Assembly: GCA_021162615.1 (NCBI GenBank)
Contig: JAGGYH010000098.1
Coordinates: 1 to 62,126 of the forward strand
DNA from: Candidatus Aminicenantes bacterium
Lineage (GTDB): Bacteria; Acidobacteriota; Aminicenantia; Aminicenantales; Aminicenantaceae
Length of the DNA: 62,126 bases
Direction: 5' to 3'
Shown: positions 7,699 to 53,753 of the stretch, piece after piece
How the letters are laid out: each line of letters starts with the position of its first letter
Numbering within the stretch: the stretch's first letter is position 1
Program-made: the position numbers and the translations under genes
Notes under the pieces: generated by a model
Told to the model about the DNA's origin: nothing
The model's input: only the letters and a program-made list of their open reading frames with translations
Databases searched by the model: none

Positions 7699-10005
7699 TT
7701 ATGAACGAGCCGAACGAATGGAAAAATGAAATATCAATCCGGCGGACATATAGAATACGGCGGCTAAAAACAACGCAGCAGCAAAATTCCAGTTTATAGC
7801 GATAATGACGGTCATTACAGAACCCAAAACAGTGGCGAACGCATTGGAACCCCAGGCCCATCCAATCATTGACTTCTGTCTTTTTCCTAGATATTCAATT
7901 CCTGTGGGAAAGAACACTCCCATTAAAAAGCCCGGAATAAACAGGAGAAAAAAAGTGATAAAAATCCGCCACATCAGGCTTAAATGAATAAAAGCTGTTA
8001 TAATTTTGAATAAAAACAGGGAATACAGAACCAGTACTAAAAAGAGAAGCACAGAAAAAATCAGGATGAAGCCTTTCCCCGCAGCCTGCTTCATCTTTTT
8101 CGATAAAAGCGACCCTATTCCGGACGAGACCAACAGGGAAGAAATAATCACAGATATGGAATAGGCTGGATTTCCCAGGTACAACTGAAAAATCTTGATC
8201 ATGATAATCTCTACAGTAATGAAAGAAAGCCCTATGAGAAAGAAATAAAGGATGAAATTTTTACTCACTTGCCCTCCGGAGGATGCCTTGAGAGGGATGA
8301 ATATAAGCATAATGGGAAGCGCTATGGAAAGAAAAAGTATGGATAGATAAACAGAGTTTGAATAAATCAAAGCCCATTTAACGACGCTTTGAGCCATTCC
8401 TCTGACTTGCATATTCTTGAATGTAAACTGACCGATTTTATTAGGCTGGTTGAAATAAGGAGAATTGTCCCTGACGGGCCTGATATTTACAGAAGAAAGG
8501 CTGATGGTTTTTTTGTATTTAGGAGAAGCTAATCTGTAATACATATTATCCTTTTTTTCAAAAGGAGAATAGACGATCTCCTTTTTTTCAGCAAATTTTC
8601 TAAGGATTTCTGCTTCATCCCGGTTAAAATTTCCTTTCTTCATGAAAAAGAAATTAAACCCGTTTTCCCTTTGTACGATAAAAAATTTCTTCTCAGGCTC
8701 CTTGACCCCCATCTCTCTCAATGCTTCAAATGCTGTTGAAAAAAGCCTTTCCCCAAACCAATGCACGATATACACAACTCCGCCATCTTTGAGGTGATTC
8801 CAGTAATCCTTAAAGCTTTCTACCGTATAGATGTACGTTTCAGCAATGCTCAACCCTCCGGATAATAAAGCATCCGCGTTATGGGAATTGACCATCTGGA
8901 TAACATCAAACTGACCGTCAATCCTTTTCAAGACACTTCTTCCCTCGTCATTAAGAAGTCTCACTCCTTTTTGACGGAATATATTCCCGATATAATCCGA
9001 ATATTCGTTTGTGACCAAATGACATATTTCAGGATCCATCTCAACAGCAACTATATTCCTGAATCTATTGGAAAGAGCGCACAGAACCTCATAACCTCCG
9101 GCAGACCCGATAATAAGGGCACTTCCTCTTTTTGTCAGCTGAAAAGGAATGGCCTCATTAGCCCATTTTATCTGTCCCATCTCATGCAGCTTTCCGTTGA
9201 ATTTGGCAAGCCAGGACTGCATGGTCCCCGCATCTATCCAAATGACTTTTTTCCTTTTCAAAAAAGGAGCCACATCTATCTTATTGATAGGACTCCACTT
9301 CGAATACTCAATCATATTGTTATTATAGTGTCTGAGATAGCCCCTTTTTATCATCTTAGGTATGATCGGAAACAGAGCTTCCGAATGAACAAATAAAACA
9401 GCAAAGGCGGCCGCTATCAAGGAAAAAATGATTGTTTTTTTTACGGCCTTTATTCTGGCTATCAAAAACCATGCGAATCCCAAAAACAAAAATATGACTA
9501 ATATGACTTTTGAAGGCCCCCATTTTGTAATGAGCGGGATAATCGCTATTCCCCCCAGCGCTGCTCCCAAAAGGTCAATAAAATAAAGCTTCCCGATCTC
9601 AGAAGAGTACAGGCTGAATATCAAAACCAGAGAAGCGCCTGCAAAGAAGAAAGGAAGCAGTAAAAGGAAAAAATTGAGGATCAAAAGCAGAAAATTCGAG
9701 ATCGGATTGAAGAGATTTAAGAAATCTATACTGGTCGATATGGTTATTTTATAAATAACTGGAAGACTTAATGAAAAACACAGCAGAAACAGCTCCAGAT
9801 ATTTCATCGCATCCTTTTTATATGTGATACGTCCTACGGACATATAAGCCCCGCTCAATCCATACCCGAAGAGAGCGAGGGAGATCATCAGGAAAGCAAA
9901 AGAGCTGACATATATCACTGAGAAGACCCGTGTGTAGAGGATCTCAATCAAAACAGTAGAAAAGGTGATGGCAAATATGGGAATGATGAGTTTGAGCCGT
10001 TTCAT
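7699..10005 (-). CDS. Polytopic membrane protein with spermidine-synthase-like SAM-binding domain
   Basis: N- and C-terminal TM bundles flank WSPINKIDV, IIGSAGGYE, VEMDP and DEGRS; LYFIDLLGA and WAWGSN motifs. Confidence 0.75.
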   Translation of the reverse strand: MKRLKLIIPIFAITFSTVLIEILYTRVFSVIYVSSFAFLMISLALFGYGLSGAYMSVGRITYKKDAMKYLELFLLCFSLSLPVIYKITISTSIDFLNLFNPISNFLLLILNFFLLLLPFFFAGASLVLIFSLYSSEIGKLYFIDLLGAALGGIAIIPLITKWGPSKVILVIFLFLGFAWFLIARIKAVKKTIIFSLIAAAFAVLFVHSEALFPIIPKMIKRGYLRHYNNNMIEYSKWSPINKIDVAPFLKRKKVIWIDAGTMQSWLAKFNGKLHEMGQIKWANEAIPFQLTKRGSALIIGSAGGYEVLCALSNRFRNIVAVEMDPEICHLVTNEYSDYIGNIFRQKGVRLLNDEGRSVLKRIDGQFDVIQMVNSHNADALLSGGLSIAETYIYTVESFKDYWNHLKDGGVVYIVHWFGERLFSTAFEALREMGVKEPEKKFFIVQRENGFNFFFMKKGNFNRDEAEILRKFAEKKEIVYSPFEKKDNMYYRLASPKYKKTISLSSVNIRPVRDNSPYFNQPNKIGQFTFKNMQVRGMAQSVVKWALIYSNSVYLSILFLSIALPIMLIFIPLKASSGGQVSKNFILYFFLIGLSFITVEIIMIKIFQLYLGNPAYSISVIISSLLVSSGIGSLLSKKMKQAAGKGFILIFSVLLFLVLVLYSLFLFKIITAFIHLSLMWRIFITFFLLFIPGFLMGVFFPTGIEYLGKRQKSMIGWAWGSNAFATVLGSVMTVIIAINWNFAAALFLAAVFYMSAGLIFHFSIRSARS

Positions 10006-10124
10006 ATCTTCTCTTTAAAATGAAGACATTATAGTATAGGGGCTTATCCTAATCAATAAAAAGGTTTCTGTCTCTGTCCAAAATTTTCTTTACAAGGGAA
10101 CACAGGAGACTAAAATATAAAGAA

Positions 10125-11159
10125 GTGAAAAACATATTTAAGAGACCCAGAAAGCCAAAGCAGTCAGATGGAGAATTTCTGGAAGAAATATATAGGAGGC
10201 TTTTGGGGAGAGAGGTTGACGAGGAAGGAAAAAGATATTACCTTGAATTTCTGGGCAAAAGACATTCAAGGGTCTCGGTCTTACTGAGCATCATAGAGTC
10301 AGAAGAGTTTAAAAACAAAACAGCAAGAGATAACCTCCATCATCTGCTGCTTCCCTCCATTCGAAGCGAGAAGCCCGACCAGTACAAACAAGTAATGGAT
10401 ACACATGCAAAAGAAAAAATATGGGTATTTGAAGTTCGAGAGCCTTCTGATTTTGACTGGCTTGAGAAGAAAATCATTGATAACGGTTATTATGAAAAAC
10501 CAGGCGTATGGAATCTTGAAATCGGGGAGGACCAAAAAATCCTCTCTGAACTCATCTCAACGTTCGATCCTGAATGGGTACTGGATTTAGGGTGTGCGAA
10601 CGGAACCATCATGAAATGCCTTTTTGACAGGGGAATAAAGAGCGAGGGGATAGAAATAAGCAAGCTTTCTCTATCCAAAGCTTTCCCTGAAATAAAGGAA
10701 AACATTCACTTCGGAGAAATCCTGGAAGTCGATCTCGCAAAGAAATACGATTTCATACTCGGACTTGACATATTCGAGCATCTGAATCCCAATAAACTCA
10801 AACAATATATCCAAAAAATTGACACCCTTCTCTCTGAAAACGGGTTCCTTTTCTGCAACATCCCGGCCTTTGGAAACGATGAGGTTTTCGGAGAGATATT
10901 TCCTGTCTATATCAAAGATTGGGAGCAGGACATAAAAGAAAATCAACTTTTTCAAACCGTACACACAGACGATTACGGATATCCGAAAAACGGGCATATC
11001 ATCGGAGCCGGGACCCAATGGTGGGTGAAGCAGTTTGAAGATCAAGGATTCCACCGCCAGAGAAAAAGAGAAAGAGCCCTTCACCGCCAGTACGACAGAG
11101 CCATGGATCAGATATCCATTGCTAGGAAATCCTATTATCTCTTTTCAAAAAAACCTTGA
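10125..11159 (+). CDS. Class I SAM-dependent methyltransferase with N-terminal DUF4214-like helical domain
   Basis: VLDLGCANG motif I, GIEIS, DIFEHL; N-terminal FLEEIYRRLLGREVDEEG...SEEF. Confidence 0.75.
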   Translation: MKNIFKRPRKPKQSDGEFLEEIYRRLLGREVDEEGKRYYLEFLGKRHSRVSVLLSIIESEEFKNKTARDNLHHLLLPSIRSEKPDQYKQVMDTHAKEKIWVFEVREPSDFDWLEKKIIDNGYYEKPGVWNLEIGEDQKILSELISTFDPEWVLDLGCANGTIMKCLFDRGIKSEGIEISKLSLSKAFPEIKENIHFGEILEVDLAKKYDFILGLDIFEHLNPNKLKQYIQKIDTLLSENGFLFCNIPAFGNDEVFGEIFPVYIKDWEQDIKENQLFQTVHTDDYGYPKNGHIIGAGTQWWVKQFEDQGFHRQRKRERALHRQYDRAMDQISIARKSYYLFSKKP

Positions 11160-11211
11160 AAAAAGTCCATCCATTCAGAATAAATTGAATTGCTTACATG
11201 AAATTCATTTT

Positions 11212-12600
11212 TTATTTATGGAATTTCTTTATAAATTCCTCAACTTCAGGAACCCCTCCCTGGTAAACCAAGTATCCGTTATAAGGCTCCCTTTCCGTTA
11301 TCTCATCGTTTATGGGATCAAGCATCATTTCCTTTACCTTCTCCGGATCATCTGTCTGGGCCAGGACCCATCCCAGTTTGATATAAGCCACTTCAGGAAG
11401 CATGTTCTCTGCCGGAACAATACCTTTGGCCATCAAATCTCTCCCGGTGTCATACACATACATGTGCACATAGCCCCAGAGAGTCTGTACTGTCATAAAA
11501 ATGTGCACACCCTTTTTTACTGCTCTTTCTATAGCAGGATAAACCGGCTTGTTCACATGTCCCAGACCTGTTCCCGCGATCACGATTCCTTTATATCCAT
11601 TGTCTACCAAAGAATCAATCATATCCGGCTGCATATTGGGATAATAATAGATCAAGGTGACTCTTTCTTCAAAATAAGGAAATACCCGGCATTTCTTGTC
11701 TTTTCTCCTGGGATTGTATTTCTTCTTAATGAGTTCCACACTGTTTCTTGTGACTTTGGCGACCGGGACATCCCCAATAGTCCGGAAAGTGGAACGATAG
11801 GAAGAATGCATCTTCCTCACGCGTGTCCCCCTGTGAAGAAAACCATATTCGTCTGATGTGGGCCCGAACATACACACCAATACTTCGGCAATATCCGAAT
11901 GACCTGCCGCATAGGAAGCATGCATCAGGTTCAAGGCTGCATCTGAGCTGGGTCTGTCCGAAGACCTTTGAGAACCCACCAGAATAACCGGTACAGGCAA
12001 ATCCTGTACCATAAAAGTCAAAGCAGCGGCTGTATGATGGAGTGTATCTGTTCCATGACCGATAATGATTCCGTCTGTTCCTTTCTGGATTTCCTTTTGG
12101 ATGGCCTTAGCCAGAACCTTATACTGCATAGGACCCATGTTTTCACTGAAAACTCCGAACAATTTTTCAGTGGTGATATTGCATATATCAGCAAGCTCGG
12201 GAACAGCTCCGTAAAGCTCCCCGGGAGAAAAAGCAGGGATCACAGCCCCTGTCCTGTAATCCAGTCTGGAAGCTATGGTTCCTCCTGTCCCGAACAGTTT
12301 GACATTGGGTTTGTCATCCGAATAGGGAAACTTCTTCTCTGGAATATGATATTGGGCTTTTTTATAACCTAATTCTTCAATATCATTTACCGTATCTATG
12401 TCAATCCCTATGTTGTAGCCGGTGGCTATTTTAAGAACGATGTGTTTGTCATCATCATTTTCGGCCCTGGGAAGGATGGTCCCTTCAAACAATCCCCTCG
12501 TGGTATCCACTTTGACCTTTCCCCAGACTCTGGCATTGAATTTTTTCAGCAGGTTCAATGCTTTTCCTTTATAACCCTGAAACAAATCTTTATCACTCAC
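11212..12600 (-). CDS. gatD: Glu-tRNA(Gln) amidotransferase subunit D (glutaminase)
   Basis: N-terminal IVLKIATGYNIGI domain; GTGGTIASRLDYRTGAV, HGTDT, GSQRSSDRPSSD, RKMHSS. GTG start at 12600 overlaps the gatE stop. Confidence 0.92.
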   Translation of the reverse strand: MSDKDLFQGYKGKALNLLKKFNARVWGKVKVDTTRGLFEGTILPRAENDDDKHIVLKIATGYNIGIDIDTVNDIEELGYKKAQYHIPEKKFPYSDDKPNVKLFGTGGTIASRLDYRTGAVIPAFSPGELYGAVPELADICNITTEKLFGVFSENMGPMQYKVLAKAIQKEIQKGTDGIIIGHGTDTLHHTAAALTFMVQDLPVPVILVGSQRSSDRPSSDAALNLMHASYAAGHSDIAEVLVCMFGPTSDEYGFLHRGTRVRKMHSSYRSTFRTIGDVPVAKVTRNSVELIKKKYNPRRKDKKCRVFPYFEERVTLIYYYPNMQPDMIDSLVDNGYKGIVIAGTGLGHVNKPVYPAIERAVKKGVHIFMTVQTLWGYVHMYVYDTGRDLMAKGIVPAENMLPEVAYIKLGWVLAQTDDPEKVKEMMLDPINDEITEREPYNGYLVYQGGVPEVEEFIKKFHK

Positions 12601-14581
12601 TGTTCTCAACCTCTTCTCTGACTTTCCGTCTGAGCTCGGAAAGAGGGATGTTCCCTAAAGCTATGCGCCTCAGTTTGCCCATAACCCAATCAATCGCTGC
12701 CTTTTCCCGGTTATTTATCCTTTTATAAGGAGAGAAACCCTCTAAAACTAAAGGGATCCGGGCCAAAATATCTTCTTTTTTCCTTTTCCTGTATCCCCAT
12801 CTATCCAAAAGATGATTGAAATACTGCCGGGGACGGGAATAGAGCACGGGAATCATTTCCTCAGCCAATTCGAATTCAATGGAATTGTCATGGAGAAATT
12901 TCAGTAAATGATAGATTTTTTCATACGTAAATCCAGTTGAAATCTGGTTCTGTCCCTGGACATGTTTCAACATATGGCCGAAAAGAGTTCCCACATAGGT
13001 TGGATCTATCTCCAGGTCGTTTATTATTTTCTCCATAACAGGGACCAGATTGTTTCTTAAGAGATAGATAAACGTATCCTCGGGTATATCCCATTTTCTT
13101 AACTGGTCTATTCTCTTTGAAACATCCACAGGAAGTCTTTTTCTTATTTTTTCTATGTAATCTTCCTTTAAGGGAATAGGGGATGAATCTGTATCCGGAT
13201 ACATGCGGTCAGGCCCGGGCAGAACCCGTTCGAATACAGTTGTACCGTCTTCGAACGATTTCCGGCTCTCCCTGGGTACTCCCTCAAAAGCCATGTGGCA
13301 TCGTTCCTCAATGGTCTCAAGGGCTGTAGGGATATCTTGTTCGGGGCCCCAGATAACCATTTGGGCATCATCCGGCCTTGAGTTTAAAATCTTTCGAATC
13401 CTCTTCCATTGGTTATCAGATATATCTTTTCTTATCTGTTCTGAATGAGCCAGATGGGGCTTTTCTATACACGCAATCACTTTTATCCGGCCGCTCAACT
13501 CATCCGCAAACATCTGACCGGGCTGTGTGAAATGGGACAGGATCCCTTTGAATGAAGGGAGATTGACCGCCTTTATTTCAAAATCATTCTTAACCGCATC
13601 TTTCAAGACATGTGACTTGAATCGAAACGCTTTGGGATTGATGGATTTTGACTGTATCTTCCATTTTTTTATTTGCTTCACTCTTTTTCGGAGCTTGTCT
13701 CTTATATGCAGAAGGGCCCACTGCCTGAAAGCTTCGTTATGCGTCAGCTCTGGAATCCATTTGTTATGAGAGACCCCTTTTATTTCATTGCGGCTTCCTC
13801 CCCTGCAGCTCACATTGACATCCTCTCTTCCAGACCCTATTCCTGTTCTTACTTTCCCTGTGCTCCGGTTTAAAAAGCGGATATACTCGGCTCCTTCCCT
13901 TACCTCATCAGGATTTGCAAAATCCGGATAGGTCACAGTCTCAATTAGGGGCATCCCCAATCTGTCAGTCTGGTATTTCCTCACATGCCCTCTATCCGAT
14001 ATTTCACGGCAGGAATCTTCCTCCAGGCTGAGCTGGATCAGCCTGATTTTTTTGTTCCTCAGCTGGATCTCCCCTTCCACCCCTAAAATAGCGGTCCTTT
14101 GGAATCCGGTGGGAATGCTTCCATCCAAATACTGTTTCCTGATGATATGGACTTCTCCCACGATATTCAGTTTGCATAAAAGTGAGATCTCCAATGCGAT
14201 ATCCAGAGCTTCCCTGTTGAGCGGAAAAGGAGGTGTGTCGTCTATGTCATATGTGCAGGCAGTCTCATTCTTTATTCTGTATACGATCTGTTTTCTGGTC
14301 TTAAACTCCATCAAGGCTGTACCGTCATACTCTCCCAGCTCACTCAGAGTGGGCCGCATATGTCTGATGATCTCCGCATCATATTCCCCTTTGGGATTAT
14401 AAAGTCCGGCCGGACAGTTACAGAACAACTTTTTCTTGGTTTTCAACTGCTGATGGACTTCAAGACCGGATTTAAAGCCGATCCGGTCATAGTCTTTTTG
14501 AGTGGCCCGCCGAAGGGAAACATAACCGATCTCTTGTTTTGTATTATTATAGTTATTCTCAGGATCAAATTCTTCAGTCAT
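12593..14581 (-). CDS. gatE: Glu-tRNA(Gln) amidotransferase subunit E
   Basis: GLEVHQQL, KLFCNCP, RPTLSELGE, DGSIPTGFQRT, LEEDSCR, DRLGMPLIE, RVLPGPDRMYPDTD. Central insertion is typical of GatE rather than GatB. Confidence 0.92.
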   Translation of the reverse strand: MTEEFDPENNYNNTKQEIGYVSLRRATQKDYDRIGFKSGLEVHQQLKTKKKLFCNCPAGLYNPKGEYDAEIIRHMRPTLSELGEYDGTALMEFKTRKQIVYRIKNETACTYDIDDTPPFPLNREALDIALEISLLCKLNIVGEVHIIRKQYLDGSIPTGFQRTAILGVEGEIQLRNKKIRLIQLSLEEDSCREISDRGHVRKYQTDRLGMPLIETVTYPDFANPDEVREGAEYIRFLNRSTGKVRTGIGSGREDVNVSCRGGSRNEIKGVSHNKWIPELTHNEAFRQWALLHIRDKLRKRVKQIKKWKIQSKSINPKAFRFKSHVLKDAVKNDFEIKAVNLPSFKGILSHFTQPGQMFADELSGRIKVIACIEKPHLAHSEQIRKDISDNQWKRIRKILNSRPDDAQMVIWGPEQDIPTALETIEERCHMAFEGVPRESRKSFEDGTTVFERVLPGPDRMYPDTDSSPIPLKEDYIEKIRKRLPVDVSKRIDQLRKWDIPEDTFIYLLRNNLVPVMEKIINDLEIDPTYVGTLFGHMLKHVQGQNQISTGFTYEKIYHLLKFLHDNSIEFELAEEMIPVLYSRPRQYFNHLLDRWGYRKRKKEDILARIPLVLEGFSPYKRINNREKAAIDWVMGKLRRIALGNIPLSELRRKVREEVENSE

Positions 14582-14623
14582 CAAACATACCTATTATAGA
14601 ACTAATTATTCTATCAGAATTAA

Positions 14624-15227
14624 CCTGACCTATTCATTAAAAAAATGGCGATAAGCATTTCTTTGTTTTGCTTCCAAGGATATACATGCTTTTTACAAAA
14701 AAGACAAATGAAATATTTTTGTTTGTTTTCACTTTCATTTTAATCATCATTTTTTTTCCATTAAGGCGAGCCGATATGAAATTCAGGTGTGGCCTTTGCT
14801 CCCTTCAGATTTTTAACGCCATTCTTCGCACTGTGTTCTCGGCTGCTGCGTAACTCCCCCCGTCCGTGGGTGATCCTGGTAATTCATAAAATATGGTTGC
14901 GTTTCCAACACATTTACCATGATCGGCTCTCTTATCATTCTTAATTCATTAAGAACATACTTCTTACGTTAGTACATGTAATAATTTTACTTTATGCAAC
15001 CATATTTTACCTTCATAGGCGAGCCCATCTTACAGCATCTGCTTTGTTTAAGGGTATTTGCGGTGAAGGACCACAGCTTCATACCCTGCGCCTCGCATCT
15101 GCAGCAACCTCGACTTGTGAATAACCAGGATCGACTTCATGCATCCGAAGGCTGAATCTTCAATGTCGCTACGTCCACACCTGAATTTCATAAGGTTTTT
15201 ACAGCCTCGACTCGTGAATAAGCCAGG
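14624..15227 (+). mobile_element. Nested composite repeat A[B[A]]
   Basis: Outer A ends 14624/15227, element B 14784-15183, inner divergent A 14875-15129 (255 bp). Confidence 0.75.
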
Positions 15228-15265
15228 TTGAATAATTTTCCAAGTCACATTAAACTGAGCTTGGC

Positions 15266-15724
15266 TTATATATAGAAAAGAACCAGGACTTCCGCAACTA
15301 AGGCTGGTTTGTCCTCCCCTTCTATCTCGACCGTATTTTGAACAGAGGCCAGAACTCGGCGGAATCCTCTTTTCTCAACTCTTGCAAGAAAAGCCCTGTT
15401 TCTTATCCGGGACCCGGGTCCGACCGGATGGATGAATCTGACTTTATTCATCCCGTAATTAACCATCATCTTACAGTCATATGAAAATATTTCGCTTTTC
15501 CGACTCAAATAAGGTATGAGGGAGAGCACTAAAAAACCATGAGCCACAGTTCCACCCAAGGGGCTTTTTTCTGCCTTTTTGATATCCACATGGATCCACT
15601 GCCTGTCTTCCGTGCATTCTGCAAAGTCATTGATACGGTCCTGGGTTATCTCAAACCAATCTGAAAGGCAGACTTCTTTTCCTCTATATTTTTTAAGCTT
15701 TTTTAGTGTTAATTTCTCGCTCAT
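15266..15724 (-). CDS. MaoC/NodN-family hot-dog dehydratase
   Basis: FAECTEDRQWIHVD, VAHGFL, NYGMNKVRF. Confidence 0.88.
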   Translation of the reverse strand: MSEKLTLKKLKKYRGKEVCLSDWFEITQDRINDFAECTEDRQWIHVDIKKAEKSPLGGTVAHGFLVLSLIPYLSRKSEIFSYDCKMMVNYGMNKVRFIHPVGPGSRIRNRAFLARVEKRGFRRVLASVQNTVEIEGEDKPALVAEVLVLFYI

Positions 15725-15869
15725 TGTTTATTCTCTTTTCTTCGATACACACGATCCTTTTTAAGAATAATTACTTGAACTTCAAAATCTGAATCATGTA
15801 TACTCGGCGTAAGAATTTTGTTATACAGAAATCATACTAAACTGGGCCATGACTAACAAGACCAAATGT

Positions 15870-16013
15870 CCTGACCTGTTCATAAAAAAACGGCGATGTT
15901 CATTTTTTTACCTTACAGGCAAGCCGACATGAAATTCAGATATGGCCTGTGCTCCCTTCAGATTTTTAACGCCATTCTACTTCGTTTTTCTCGGCGCTTG
16001 CGTAACTCCCCCC
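15870..16013 (+). repeat. Truncated A+B composite repeat overlapping the dctP 5' end
   Basis: CCTGACCTGTTCATAAAAAAACGGCGAT, then the same A/B junction as 14765-14790, then the B left half. Confidence 0.75.
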
Positions 16014-16981
16014 TCACCTTGGTTCTTTTCTTCTCCCTTATTTTTCTCCTATTTACAGGATGCTGCCAAAAAAAAAGCCACAGGATCCTTAAACTCGCCC
16101 ATGTTCTGGATACCAGTCATCCCGTTCATAAAGCCATGGCTTTTATGGCTGAACAAGTTGAGGAAAAATCAAATGGAAGATTGACCATAAAAATATATCC
16201 GAGCGGACAGTTAGGTCAAGAACGTGAACTGATAGAGCTTTTACAAATCGGAAGCCTGGCAATGGCTAAAGTATCCACAGCTCCTCTCGAATCCTTCGTT
16301 CCTGAGATAAAAATCCTTGGCATCCCCTATGTTTTTAGGGATGATACACACAGATGGAATGTTTTGAAAAGCGATATCGGCAGATCCCTGCTTCTTTCAG
16401 GAGAGGAATGTTTTCTCCGCGGCTTGTGCTTTTATGATGCGGGAAGCCGAAGTTTTTATACCAAAAAAATCCCTATACATTCCCCGAAAGACCTCAAAGG
16501 TCTGAAAATCAGAGTCATGAAAAGTGTGACATCTGTCAACATGGTCAAAGCTCTGGGAGGCTCTCCTACCCCTATTTCATGGGGTGAACTATACACCGCT
16601 CTCCAACAGGGGGTTGTCGACGGAGCGGAAAACAATCCACCCAGTTTCTTTCTCTCCCACCACTATGAAGTCTGTCAGTTTTACACCCTGGACGAACACA
16701 CCTCGGTTCCGGACATACTCTTGATAAGCACTGCAGTATGGGACCATCTCACCCCTCAAGAACGGACATGGCTGCAGCAGGCCGCTGATGAATCCGTGGA
16801 TTTCCAGAGAAAACTTTGGGATAAAGCCTGCCAGGAAGCTCTTCAAGAAGTCAAAAAAGCAGGGGTCACGATCATATATCCTGATAAAGCGGCTTTCATC
16901 CGGTCCGCAGAAAAGCTACATGATTCGTATAGAGGTACTCAAATCTTTGAACTGATAAATAAAATAAAGGAGATGGAATAA
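15896..16981 (+). CDS. dctP: TRAP transporter solute-binding protein DctP (start uncertain)
   Basis: IYPSGQLG, DLKGLKIRV, ELYTALQQGVVDGAENN; lipobox-like FTGC. Confidence 0.88.
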   Translation: MFIFLPYRQADMKFRYGLCSLQIFNAILLRFSRRLRNSPLTLVLFFSLIFLLFTGCCQKKSHRILKLAHVLDTSHPVHKAMAFMAEQVEEKSNGRLTIKIYPSGQLGQERELIELLQIGSLAMAKVSTAPLESFVPEIKILGIPYVFRDDTHRWNVLKSDIGRSLLLSGEECFLRGLCFYDAGSRSFYTKKIPIHSPKDLKGLKIRVMKSVTSVNMVKALGGSPTPISWGELYTALQQGVVDGAENNPPSFFLSHHYEVCQFYTLDEHTSVPDILLISTAVWDHLTPQERTWLQQAADESVDFQRKLWDKACQEALQEVKKAGVTIIYPDKAAFIRSAEKLHDSYRGTQIFELINKIKEME

Positions 16982-52577: not shown

Positions 52578-53753
52578 ATGGGCAGCAGAGACAGTATGAA
52601 AAATATAGCCGTTCTCGGATCCACCGGTTCAATCGGAAGAAGCACGCTTGAAATCATATCTCATCTCAAGGATAGTTTCCAGGTCGTGGGCCTTTCTGCG
52701 GGGAGAAACAAAGAACTTCTTTATAAGCAGATCAACTATTTTGAGCCCGAGATTGTTTCACTAAGTCATGAAAAAGATGCGGATGAGCTCAAAAAAATGA
52801 CATTCAGCCATAAGGTAAAAATAAGATACGGCCAGGAAGGCGCGGAAGAAGTGGCTGGTTACTCCAAGAACGACATCATTATCTCGGCTATAACCGGAAT
52901 CAAAGGATTAAGGCCTACGATAGCGGCTGTCAGGAGCGGAAAACGCGTCGGTCTTGCGAATAAAGAATCAATGGTCGCAGCCGGAGCGCTGATAAATAAG
53001 GAGGCATCAAAATCAGGAGCTGAGATCATTCCTGTGGACAGCGAACACAGCGGAGTTTTTCAATGTTTACACAAGGAAAATCTTCAAGACGTAAACAAAG
53101 TCATCCTTACGGCTTCCGGAGGGCCTTTTTTTCATTTGGACCAGAGAGACATTAAAAACCAGTCTGTGGAAGACGCCCTTAATCATCCCAGATGGAGTAT
53201 GGGAAAAAAAATTTCTATTGATTCTGCCACCATGATGAACAAAGGCCTTGAGCTGATTGAAGCCAAATGGCTGTTCAACCTCCCCCCTGAAAAACTGGAT
53301 GCGCTCATCCATCCGCAGAGTATTGTGCATTCTCTGGTGGAAATGAGAGACGGTTCTGTGCTGGCTCAGTTAAGCCTGACAGATATGAAAATCCCTATTC
53401 AATTCGCTCTGACATACCCGTACAGAAAGGAATCTGCACTGCCTTCATTGAATCTGAGCGAAGTGGGGTCTCTAGATTTTTATGAAGCGGATTTAAATAA
53501 GTTTCCCTTGCTCAGGCTTGCTTTTAAAGCTCTCAGAAAAGAACAGTATTTTTCAATAGCTTTTAATGCTTCCAATGAAAGCGCGGTCAATGCTTTTCTT
53601 AAGAGAGAAATCCATTTTTCTGATATATGGGAATTAGTTATTGAAGTGACAGAGGAGACAAATAAAATGGAAGTTAAAACAGTAGAAGATATCTTAAATC
53701 TAGACCAGGAAACCAGAGAGAAAATCCGGGATAAAATCAGGCGGAGATACTGA
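52578..53753 (+). CDS. dxr: 1-deoxy-D-xylulose-5-phosphate reductoisomerase
   Basis: LGSTGSIG, LANKES, PVDSEH, TASGGPF, DSATMMNKGLE. Confidence 0.96.
   Translation: MGSRDSMKNIAVLGSTGSIGRSTLEIISHLKDSFQVVGLSAGRNKELLYKQINYFEPEIVSLSHEKDADELKKMTFSHKVKIRYGQEGAEEVAGYSKNDIIISAITGIKGLRPTIAAVRSGKRVGLANKESMVAAGALINKEASKSGAEIIPVDSEHSGVFQCLHKENLQDVNKVILTASGGPFFHLDQRDIKNQSVEDALNHPRWSMGKKISIDSATMMNKGLELIEAKWLFNLPPEKLDALIHPQSIVHSLVEMRDGSVLAQLSLTDMKIPIQFALTYPYRKESALPSLNLSEVGSLDFYEADLNKFPLLRLAFKALRKEQYFSIAFNASNESAVNAFLKREIHFSDIWELVIEVTEETNKMEVKTVEDILNLDQETREKIRDKIRRRY

Follow-up and report, generated by a model that had tools for sequence, protein, structure and literature searches.

A bacterial-type GatDE operon in an Aminicenantes genome and its possible role as an accessory Glu-tRNA(Gln) amidotransferase

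What would an amidotransferase of the archaeal type do in a bacterium that also encodes glutaminyl-tRNA synthetase (GlnRS)? The question is raised by two genes, gatE and gatD, on a 62,126-nucleotide stretch of DNA from a Candidatus Aminicenantes bacterium (JAGGYH010000098.1), called the window below. The window is the entire contig C94 of a genome of 146 contigs (2.85 Mb, 42.8% GC), and the host is a member of the Aminicenantes (Acidobacteriota) from hydrothermal-vent or sediment metagenomes. GatDE is called archaea-exclusive, or an archaeal signature protein, in passages of publications from 2008, 2009, and 2022, both reviews and primary papers. No report of a bacterial GatDE was found in the literature searched, in which few subscription journals were covered; bacterial GatDE sequences are already public and labelled by automated annotation, and it is their biology that seems undescribed.

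The operon was read as follows.

12593..14581, minus strand: gatE, encoding the tRNA-binding kinase/amidotransferase subunit; 662 aa with the start at ATG 14581; identified by GatE model scores
11212..12600, minus strand: gatD, encoding the glutaminase subunit, which is asparaginase-like; 462 aa with the start at GTG 12600; identified by GatD model scores
12593..12600, minus strand: overlap of the gatD start with the gatE stop, 8 bp, GTGAGTGA, read directly from the junction sequence

The initial annotation had described an intact gatE followed by gatD with an 8-bp overlap, and direct reading of the junction gave the same result: the gatE stop codon TGA occupies 12595-12593 and the gatD GTG starts at 12600. 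This overlap implies probable translational coupling of the two genes. It would be 17 bp if gatD started at TTG 12609 (465 aa, ORF 11212..12609); for gatE, an in-frame TTG at 14584 would give a protein of 663 aa, one residue longer (ORF 12593..14584). GatE scored 482.6 bits on NF003107 (cut-off 456) and 421.8 bits on TIGR00134 (cut-off 319.55), against at most 123 bits on the GatB models, whose cut-offs are 314 or higher. GatD scored 513.5 bits on NF003217 (cut-off 310) and 511.1 bits on TIGR02153 (cut-off 324), and 376.7 bits on the type I asparaginase model. The Pfam domains were GatB_N in GatE, and GatD_N followed by Asparaginase and Asparaginase_C in GatD; GatB_N was the only Pfam domain in the GatE of the window, and PF02637 was present in many close homologues. 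Among solved structures, the best matches were archaeal GatDE entries, with 305 (2d6f_C) and 294 bits for GatE, against which solved GatB scored far lower, and 398 (2d6f_A) and 396 bits for GatD, for which asparaginases reached at most 128 bits. The models, the structure matches, and a GatE/GatB tree thus placed the proteins with GatE and GatD and not with GatB or ordinary asparaginases, the grouping on which the initial annotation had depended.

GatE could be aligned to 1zq1_C across residues 30-657, indicating that it has the three domains by which the tRNA is held, namely the insertion domain, the helical domain, and the YqeY-like tail domain. According to an excerpt of PMC2330236, the Mg ligands of Methanothermobacter thermautotrophicus GatE are His15, Glu157, and Glu184, and GatD acts through a Thr nucleophile within a triad of Thr, Lys, and Asp. 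When aligned to the archaeal enzyme, the equivalents of the three GatE ligands are kept within GLEVHQQ, LEED, and PLIE; GTGGT, HGTDT, and RKMH of GatD align likewise, the triad being assigned by motif and not by structure. All motifs quoted in the initial annotation (GTGGT, HGTDT, SSDRPSSD, GLEVHQQ, LEED, RMYP, KQYLDGSIPT, GREDVNVS, and PGPDRMYPD) were recovered in the translations. Fifty-seven positions were at least 95% conserved in both bacterial-type and archaeal rows, the Mg-ligand equivalents among them, and the ratio of nonsynonymous to synonymous substitution rates (dN/dS) against congeners was 0.03-0.07 for gatE and approximately 0.02 for gatD, with dS saturated. The analysis shows that gatDE is intact, native to this genome, and under strongly purifying selection, with its full set of catalytic residues.

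Is the operon a solitary case? When 1.84 billion cluster representatives were searched for homologues, 615 proteins had E < 1e-30, and approximately 45 clusters scored 400-640 bits, higher than typical archaeal GatE. A first tree split cleanly into a 38-row clade containing the GatE of the window, whose named members were bacterial (CSSED10-310 and a Deltaproteobacteria metagenome-assembled genome, MAG), and an 82-row clade, at whose base the named members were labelled Heimdallarchaeota and Thorarchaeota. The closest GatE homologues, with 64-100% identity, came from Candidatus Aminicenantes or Acidobacteriota MAGs and already bore the GatE label at source; "GatE [Candidatus Aminicenantes bacterium]" was one of them, as had been suspected for homologues in MAGs. 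When genomes, one per species, were scanned with the patterns KQYLDGSI and [DNE]RMYPDTD, at least 597 relatives among the 600 matching stretches listed carried both motifs. The motif variants that had been taken as hints of a divergent subfamily therefore do retrieve one.

Locus comparisons were made with the best 80 of the at least 597 relatives. Bacterial labels were found on 78 of these 80 and a label beginning with Thermoplasmat (archaeon) on two, depositors' labels being fallible. The bacterial labels were Myxococcota, Bacteroidota, Ignavibacteria, Chlorobiota, Planctomycetota, several Acidobacteriota classes, Zixibacteria, KSB1, Calditrichota, Cloacimonetes, Fermentibacteria, Krumholzibacteria, Fibrobacteres, and WOR-3, and the carriers included chromosome-level records and single-contig genomes. 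Of the 80 loci from other phyla, 66 had GatD adjoining GatE; identity to the window across phyla was 62-71% for GatD and 38-55% for GatE. No conserved neighbour besides GatD was observed in the 80 loci, where clustering of the ORFs recovered GatE and GatD and, apart from these, only antisense shadow ORFs. When the window's phylum was sampled evenly, GatE was found at E <= 1e-80 in 44 of 251 genomes, and its presence was all-or-none by family (f12, 7/7; f31, 8/8; f33, 0/18). Two single loci had a tRNA gene ahead of gatE: tRNA-Gln(CTG) with a U1-A72 pair in a Mesoterricola-labelled MAG (L079:3845-3919, 82 nt upstream of gatE), and tRNA-Glu(CTC) in L056 (L056:3726-3802).

The relationship of these sequences to archaeal GatE was examined with LG+G4 trees, in which bacterial GatB was the only outgroup and many rows were compositionally deviant. 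Fragments outside 580-720 aa (36 of 150 representatives) and two sequences with no full ORF (L048 and L090) were left out. In the careful maximum likelihood tree, built from 64 rows hand-picked out of 106, the bacterial-type GatE clade was monophyletic with support of 100/100 and in all bootstrap trees, and the GatB rows formed a separate group (support 100). This agrees with the earlier proposal of a transferred or independently retained bacterial GatDE clade. The clade was sister to an Asgard/Heimdall-labelled cluster, P0164 (98/95). Archaeal rows were monophyletic in 0 of 200 bootstrap trees; in the approximately unbiased (AU) test on the same 64 rows, archaeal monophyly was not rejected (log-likelihood difference 7.6, p-AU 0.38). 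A quick, poorly searched tree of all 106 rows, which nested the clade beside P0164, was discarded, as the archaeal-monophyly tree was better by 83.9 log-likelihood units in the AU test. P0164, a cluster mate of which is labelled Candidatus Heimdallarchaeota, shares RKQYLDGSIPTGFQRT, LEEDSCRE, and RMYPDTD with the clade, so that these signature motifs, being common to an Asgard-labelled sequence, are not markers of a change restricted to bacteria.

Two sequences, L053 and L090, come from the Thermoplasmat-labelled genomes. L053 fell inside the bacterial-type clade, near its base, and L090, which was retrieved by the clade motifs, was 47% identical to the GatE of the window and is not in the trees. 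Both genomes have an archaeal-type glutamyl-tRNA synthetase (GluRS) over the cut-off and a single GatE each, and one of the two is without a GlnRS or GatB match. In these hosts, GatDE is presumably the essential housekeeping Glu-tRNA(Gln) amidotransferase acting on A1-U72 tRNA(Gln), as judged from gene content. The genome of L053 (G051, 1.4 Mb, labelled uncultured Thermoplasmatales archaeon) combined an archaeal-type GluRS (508 bits) with a GlnRS (743 bits), the observation being located at C16:8878-10452. According to a passage of a review from 2022, GlnRS is not encoded by any archaeon; the GlnRS in G051 represents either bin contamination or a real transfer.

Within the clade, the branching of GatE did not track phyla. 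The GatE of the window's family had a long branch (0.43-0.51 substitutions per site) and, when compared with L028, L029, L035, and L083, was only 46-49% identical to other families of the same order, as distant as other phyla; another Aminicenantes-labelled GatE, L083, grouped with sequences of Bacteroidota and Ignavibacteria. The divergent GatE of the window's family may thus have evolved fast or have been acquired separately. We read these results as favouring a scenario in which one old transfer from archaea to bacteria would have been followed by spread among bacteria; the alternative would be an ancient sister lineage instead of a transfer.

We then asked which routes to Gln-tRNA(Gln) the host has. 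The genome-wide check suggested in the initial annotation found GlnRS, asparaginyl-tRNA synthetase (AsnRS), and two bacterial-type GluRS, and did not find GatA or GatB. The charging and amide-forming enzymes recorded in the host genome were as follows.

AsnRS: 482 bits
bacterial aspartyl-tRNA synthetase (AspRS): 734 bits
bacterial-type GluRS: 496 bits for one copy and 494 bits for the other
AsnB, asparagine synthetase: 479 bits

For GatB, the only matches to the gatB model in the genome were GatE itself (81 bits), and the best match to the gatA model reached 213.8 bits against a cut-off of 481. GatCAB is absent from the host genome as judged with the GatA and GatB models, no GatC search having been made. 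The presence of GlnRS means that GatDE is not the only route to Gln-tRNA(Gln), which changes the biological question, and with GlnRS, AsnRS, and AsnB in the genome GatDE is needed for neither Gln-tRNA nor Asn-tRNA. The two GluRS paralogs were 45% identical, over the catalytic domain only. One, of the C127 type, had its best solved match to "Glutamyl-tRNA synthetase 1" (2o5r, 404 bits). The other, encoded on contig C106, had its best match over the full length to "Glutamyl-tRNA synthetase 2" (3akz, 3afh, and 3al0; 350 bits), and entry 3al0 holds GatB and a GatC fusion as well. We take this "Glutamyl-tRNA synthetase 2" to be the non-discriminating enzyme of Thermotoga.

On balance, we favour the reading that the locus encodes a working heterodimer of the GatDE type, which would be an amidotransferase for Glu-tRNA(Gln) in an accessory role, its recognition of the first pair having changed. 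Several observations weigh against it. In the host, GlnRS scored 788 bits (cut-off 426) and two glutamine-synthetase-family genes were found, so that the genome has no requirement for GatDE. No archaeal-type GluRS was found there: the only other matches to the glnS model were the two bacterial-type GluRS, although archaeal GluRS reach approximately 300 bits on this model in other genomes. The assignment of the C106 enzyme has a small margin (350 bits for GluRS 2 versus 337 bits for GluRS 1), and sequence markers of GluRS discrimination are phylum-specific according to an excerpt of PMC3927822, for which reason Arg358 was dropped as a marker of discriminating and non-discriminating enzymes. In its C-terminal tail, the GatE of the window's family has a divergent motif. 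Both tRNA(Gln) genes of the host (CTG and TTG) have U1-A72 and G73, and archaeal GatDE is reported to recognise A1-U72 and the D-loop (excerpts that include PMC2330236). Redundancy is general: in a survey of 47 GatE-bearing genomes from many phyla, GlnRS was over the cut-off in 37, GatB in 21, and both together in 16, and within the window's order GlnRS was present in 23 of 25 GatE-positive genomes. Eight genomes of this order have GlnRS, whole or as a fragment, and neither type of tRNA-dependent amidotransferase (AdT), indicating that GatDE is dispensable there. Finally, two GluRS matches were obtained in only 10 of the 47 genomes, and several GatE-positive families of the order have one GluRS only; a second GluRS was accordingly ruled out as a general partner of GatDE.

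The tRNA genes narrow what an accessory amidotransferase would have to do. The initial annotation had expected the enzyme to depend on an archaeal-like tRNA(Gln) or, failing that, on altered recognition; the U1-A72 pair of the host tRNA(Gln) removes the former option and leaves the latter. Among the host tRNAs, as read from the printed ends, A1-U72 occurred in tRNA-Val(GAC) and tRNA-Trp only, and tRNA(Asn) had U1-A72. By our own reading of the sequences, the tRNA(Glu) genes have G1 and D-loops longer than those of tRNA(Gln), and AdTs reject tRNA(Glu) by this kind of first-base/D-loop difference (excerpt of PMC2330236). We infer the substrate, the source of mischarged tRNA, the altered first-pair recognition, and the physiological role proposed for bacterial GatDE. 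A GluRS that accepts tRNA(Gln), for which the C106 paralog is the candidate in the host, would form mischarged Glu-tRNA(Gln). GatE would bind this Glu-tRNA(Gln), phosphorylate its gamma-carboxyl group with ATP and Mg, and amidate it with ammonia, which GatD would free from Gln or Asn and an internal tunnel would deliver to GatE. Since the host tRNA(Gln) is U1-A72, the enzyme would be required to accept the weak U-A first pair in place of the archaeal A-U and at the same time to exclude tRNA(Glu), whose first base is G1 and whose D-loop is larger. Because GlnRS is encoded in the genome, GatDE would serve as a parallel or accessory route, or for clean-up of Glu-tRNA(Gln), and not as the sole route.

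The distribution of the two amidotransferase types bears on this proposal. GatE and GatB occurred together in only 2 of 41 genomes of the window's order, a near-exclusive pattern suggesting that the two seem to do the same job. When the archaeal members of the clade are considered alongside this pattern, the most economical interpretation is that GatDE acts on Glu-tRNA(Gln) as an accessory amidotransferase. Among the 47 GatE-bearing genomes, five had GatB without GlnRS, four had neither as assembled, and one further genome had a truncated GlnRS only; AsnRS was over the cut-off in 43. For the C106-type GluRS, an AdT was found alongside in 18 of 20 genomes of the order, compared with 13 of 18 genomes without a C106-type enzyme, these being counts over related genomes in which kinship is ignored.

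A different account of the redundancy is that the chemistry of GatDE was kept for a new function, acting on another aminoacyl-tRNA or tRNA-like substrate or under specific conditions, with no ordinary supply of Gln-tRNA(Gln). The overlap with GlnRS and GatB in the 47 genomes fits such an account, as do the suggested repeated loss in the order, the patchy but family-fixed occurrence in the phylum, the first pair of tRNA(Gln) reversed relative to the archaeal substrate, the 19 signature positions specific to the clade, the divergent GatE tail of the window's family, and the unusually high conservation of GatD across phyla. Nevertheless, every catalytic position is retained, as is the complete domain layout, archaeal members have the clade GatE as their sole GatE, the signature motifs are shared with an Asgard-labelled archaeal sequence, no conserved neighbour points to another pathway, and tRNA-Gln lies directly upstream at one locus; we regard a new function as the less likely account. 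An Asp-tRNA(Asn) amidotransferase that replaces GatCAB in tRNA-dependent asparagine formation would explain why GatCAB was not found in the host, would meet a tRNA(Asn) that is also U1-A72, and would recall GlnRS-bearing Deinococcus, Thermus, and Bdellovibrio, in which the retained AdT is tied to the asparagine route (excerpt of PMC4206432). The host, however, has both AsnRS and AsnB, AsnRS and GatB are widespread in the GatE-bearing genomes surveyed, and archaeal GatDE is reported to be specific for Glu-tRNA(Gln), with an insertion domain modelled to clash with AspRS (excerpt of PMC2330236). Such a role is accordingly very improbable.

A third alternative would be an artefact, that is, archaeal DNA mis-assembled or mis-binned into the MAG, or the decaying relic of a recent transfer. 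The genome has 146 contigs and an estimated contamination of 1.72% (completeness 92.9%), and in each of the four runs examined the contigs broke immediately upstream of gatE. These breaks are explained by a high-copy repeat at that position. The stretch 10000-16000 was found nearly identical in 20 runs of 15 studies of hydrothermal-vent and marine-sediment metagenomes, and contigs and depth were checked across the locus in four runs from four of these studies. Read depth was flat over the flank and the operon in all four; a single 5,054-nt contig (X2) covered 9706-14756, and an 11.4-kb contig (X3) ran from 8000 into gatD, so that independent contigs cross the flank into the operon. The integrity of the contig at this locus, for which read coverage had been proposed as the check, was borne out. 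Furthermore, the local GC content is 43.5%, close to that of the genome, dN/dS is far below 1, a congener keeps the gene order gatD-gatE-MaoC-TRAP, and GatE was over the cut-off in 8 of 8 congeners and in 25 of 41 genomes of the relatives sample, the genome itself included. With single-contig genomes and chromosome records among the carriers as well, an artefact is barely credible, and chimerism and contamination were rejected on the basis of depth, independent contigs, GC content, gene order in a congener, and gene presence in all congeners.

How far, then, does this GatDE resemble known systems? It shares with the archaeal enzymes (M. thermautotrophicus 2D6F and Pyrococcus abyssi 1ZQ1) the two subunits, gene adjacency, domain layout, Mg ligands of GatE, and asparaginase-type Thr/Lys/Asp site of GatD, and its proteins pass the NCBI equivalog cut-offs. 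It differs from them in its bacterial host, bacterial GluRS, GlnRS, and U1-A72 tRNA(Gln), and in not being the sole route to Gln-tRNA(Gln); the GatE of the window is only approximately 30-38% identical to most archaeal representatives, from which it is also set apart by 19 clade signature positions and, in the window's family, by a tail motif that has diverged. Its nearest archaeal relatives are the GatE of the Asgard-labelled P0164 and of the Thermoplasmat-labelled L053 and L090, whose hosts are archaeal by label; for L053 and L090, the archaeal-type GluRS backs the label. Bacterial GatCAB catalyses the same overall reaction with a GatB subunit that is paralogous to GatE. As described in excerpts from the literature, its substrate is U1-A72 tRNA(Gln), and the D-loop serves to keep tRNA(Glu) out. 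Unlike GatDE, GatCAB uses GatA, an amidase, as the glutaminase, has a GatC subunit, lacks the AspRS-like insertion, and makes Asn-tRNA(Asn) too, and in the same excerpts the first pair is read by a 3(10) turn in GatCAB and by a short loop in GatE. Deinococcus, Thermus, and Bdellovibrio provide a precedent for an AdT kept beside GlnRS and AsnRS (excerpt of PMC4206432), but their AdT is GatCAB and is linked to asparagine supply, whereas the present host has AsnRS and AsnB.

The archaea-only account is challenged by a monophyletic GatDE clade that spans hundreds of bacterial species, whose cells have U1-A72 tRNA(Gln), a bacterial GluRS, and in most cases GlnRS. The real puzzle is the redundancy, in which two or three routes to Gln-tRNA(Gln) are kept under strong selection. 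One tentative proposal, which we hold with clear reserve, is that bacterial GatDE might be a widely exchanged two-gene module that sits beside GlnRS and often GatCAB and has a separate, non-housekeeping purpose. This purpose could be the scavenging of Glu-tRNA(Gln) formed by a leaky GluRS, a second supply of Gln-tRNA that depends on the nitrogen state and uses Asn as the amide donor, or activity towards some other tRNA. If that proposal were true, an "archaeal signature" enzyme would have a second life in more than 12 bacterial phyla, and the argument that co-evolution of GatDE with archaeal tRNA(Gln) blocked inter-domain exchange would need revision. The data make several questions testable, namely how GatE reads the first pair, why the parallel routes persist under selection, and whether there was one Asgard- or Thermoplasmatota-like donor or an old sister lineage. 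For annotation, a GatE or GatD call in a bacterial MAG is no sign of contamination.

Two further features of the window lie outside the operon.

52578-53753: dxr, followed by rseP
14585..15265, no strand: AT-rich DNA upstream of gatE, 681 bp, mostly dispersed-repeat copies, outside the enzyme genes

The bacterial setting described in the initial annotation is evident from dxr and rseP and from further bacterial genes on the contig, namely hypD, a sensor histidine kinase gene, and a TRAP transporter gene. The repeat upstream of gatE belongs to a dispersed intergenic family, seen in the window at 14605-15245 and 15865-16020. These two segments gave 357 and 117 blastn matches on 83 and 60 of the 146 contigs, respectively. 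Each position has approximately 70-107 copies, which are 86-98% identical and often lie where contigs end. In the four metagenome runs, depth within the repeat was 200-2000 compared with 9-38 for the flanking DNA, and three of the four showed a presence/absence joint of 434 bp (14644->15079); the DNA upstream of gatE is thus a presence/absence polymorphism between populations. A congener has approximately 90 nt upstream of gatE, without the repeat. The family contains 79-nt direct copies and 25-29-nt inverted arms and looks like a miniature inverted-repeat transposable element (MITE) or a repetitive extragenic palindromic (REP) element. No Rfam family was found at threshold upstream of gatE or for the repeat, where two sub-threshold matches were at chance level, and promoter-like sites upstream of gatE were not commoner than in shuffled sequence. 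No gatE promoter was recognised in this upstream DNA, which consists mostly of repeat copies.

Minor observations concern the synthetase genes. At G000:C26:9471-10580, a class-II synthetase-like frame with two TAA stops scored 121.6 bits on the asnS model and may represent a pseudogene or a paralog that is AsnA- or AspRS-like. GluRS and GlnRS genes lie directly side by side in many relatives among the Aminicenantes, and likewise in GatE-bearing genomes of other phyla (for example, G027:C1:2363337-2366277 and G059:C283:4967-8208). The GluRS beside GlnRS in the window's order was often a short form, without approximately positions 97-143 of the gltX model.

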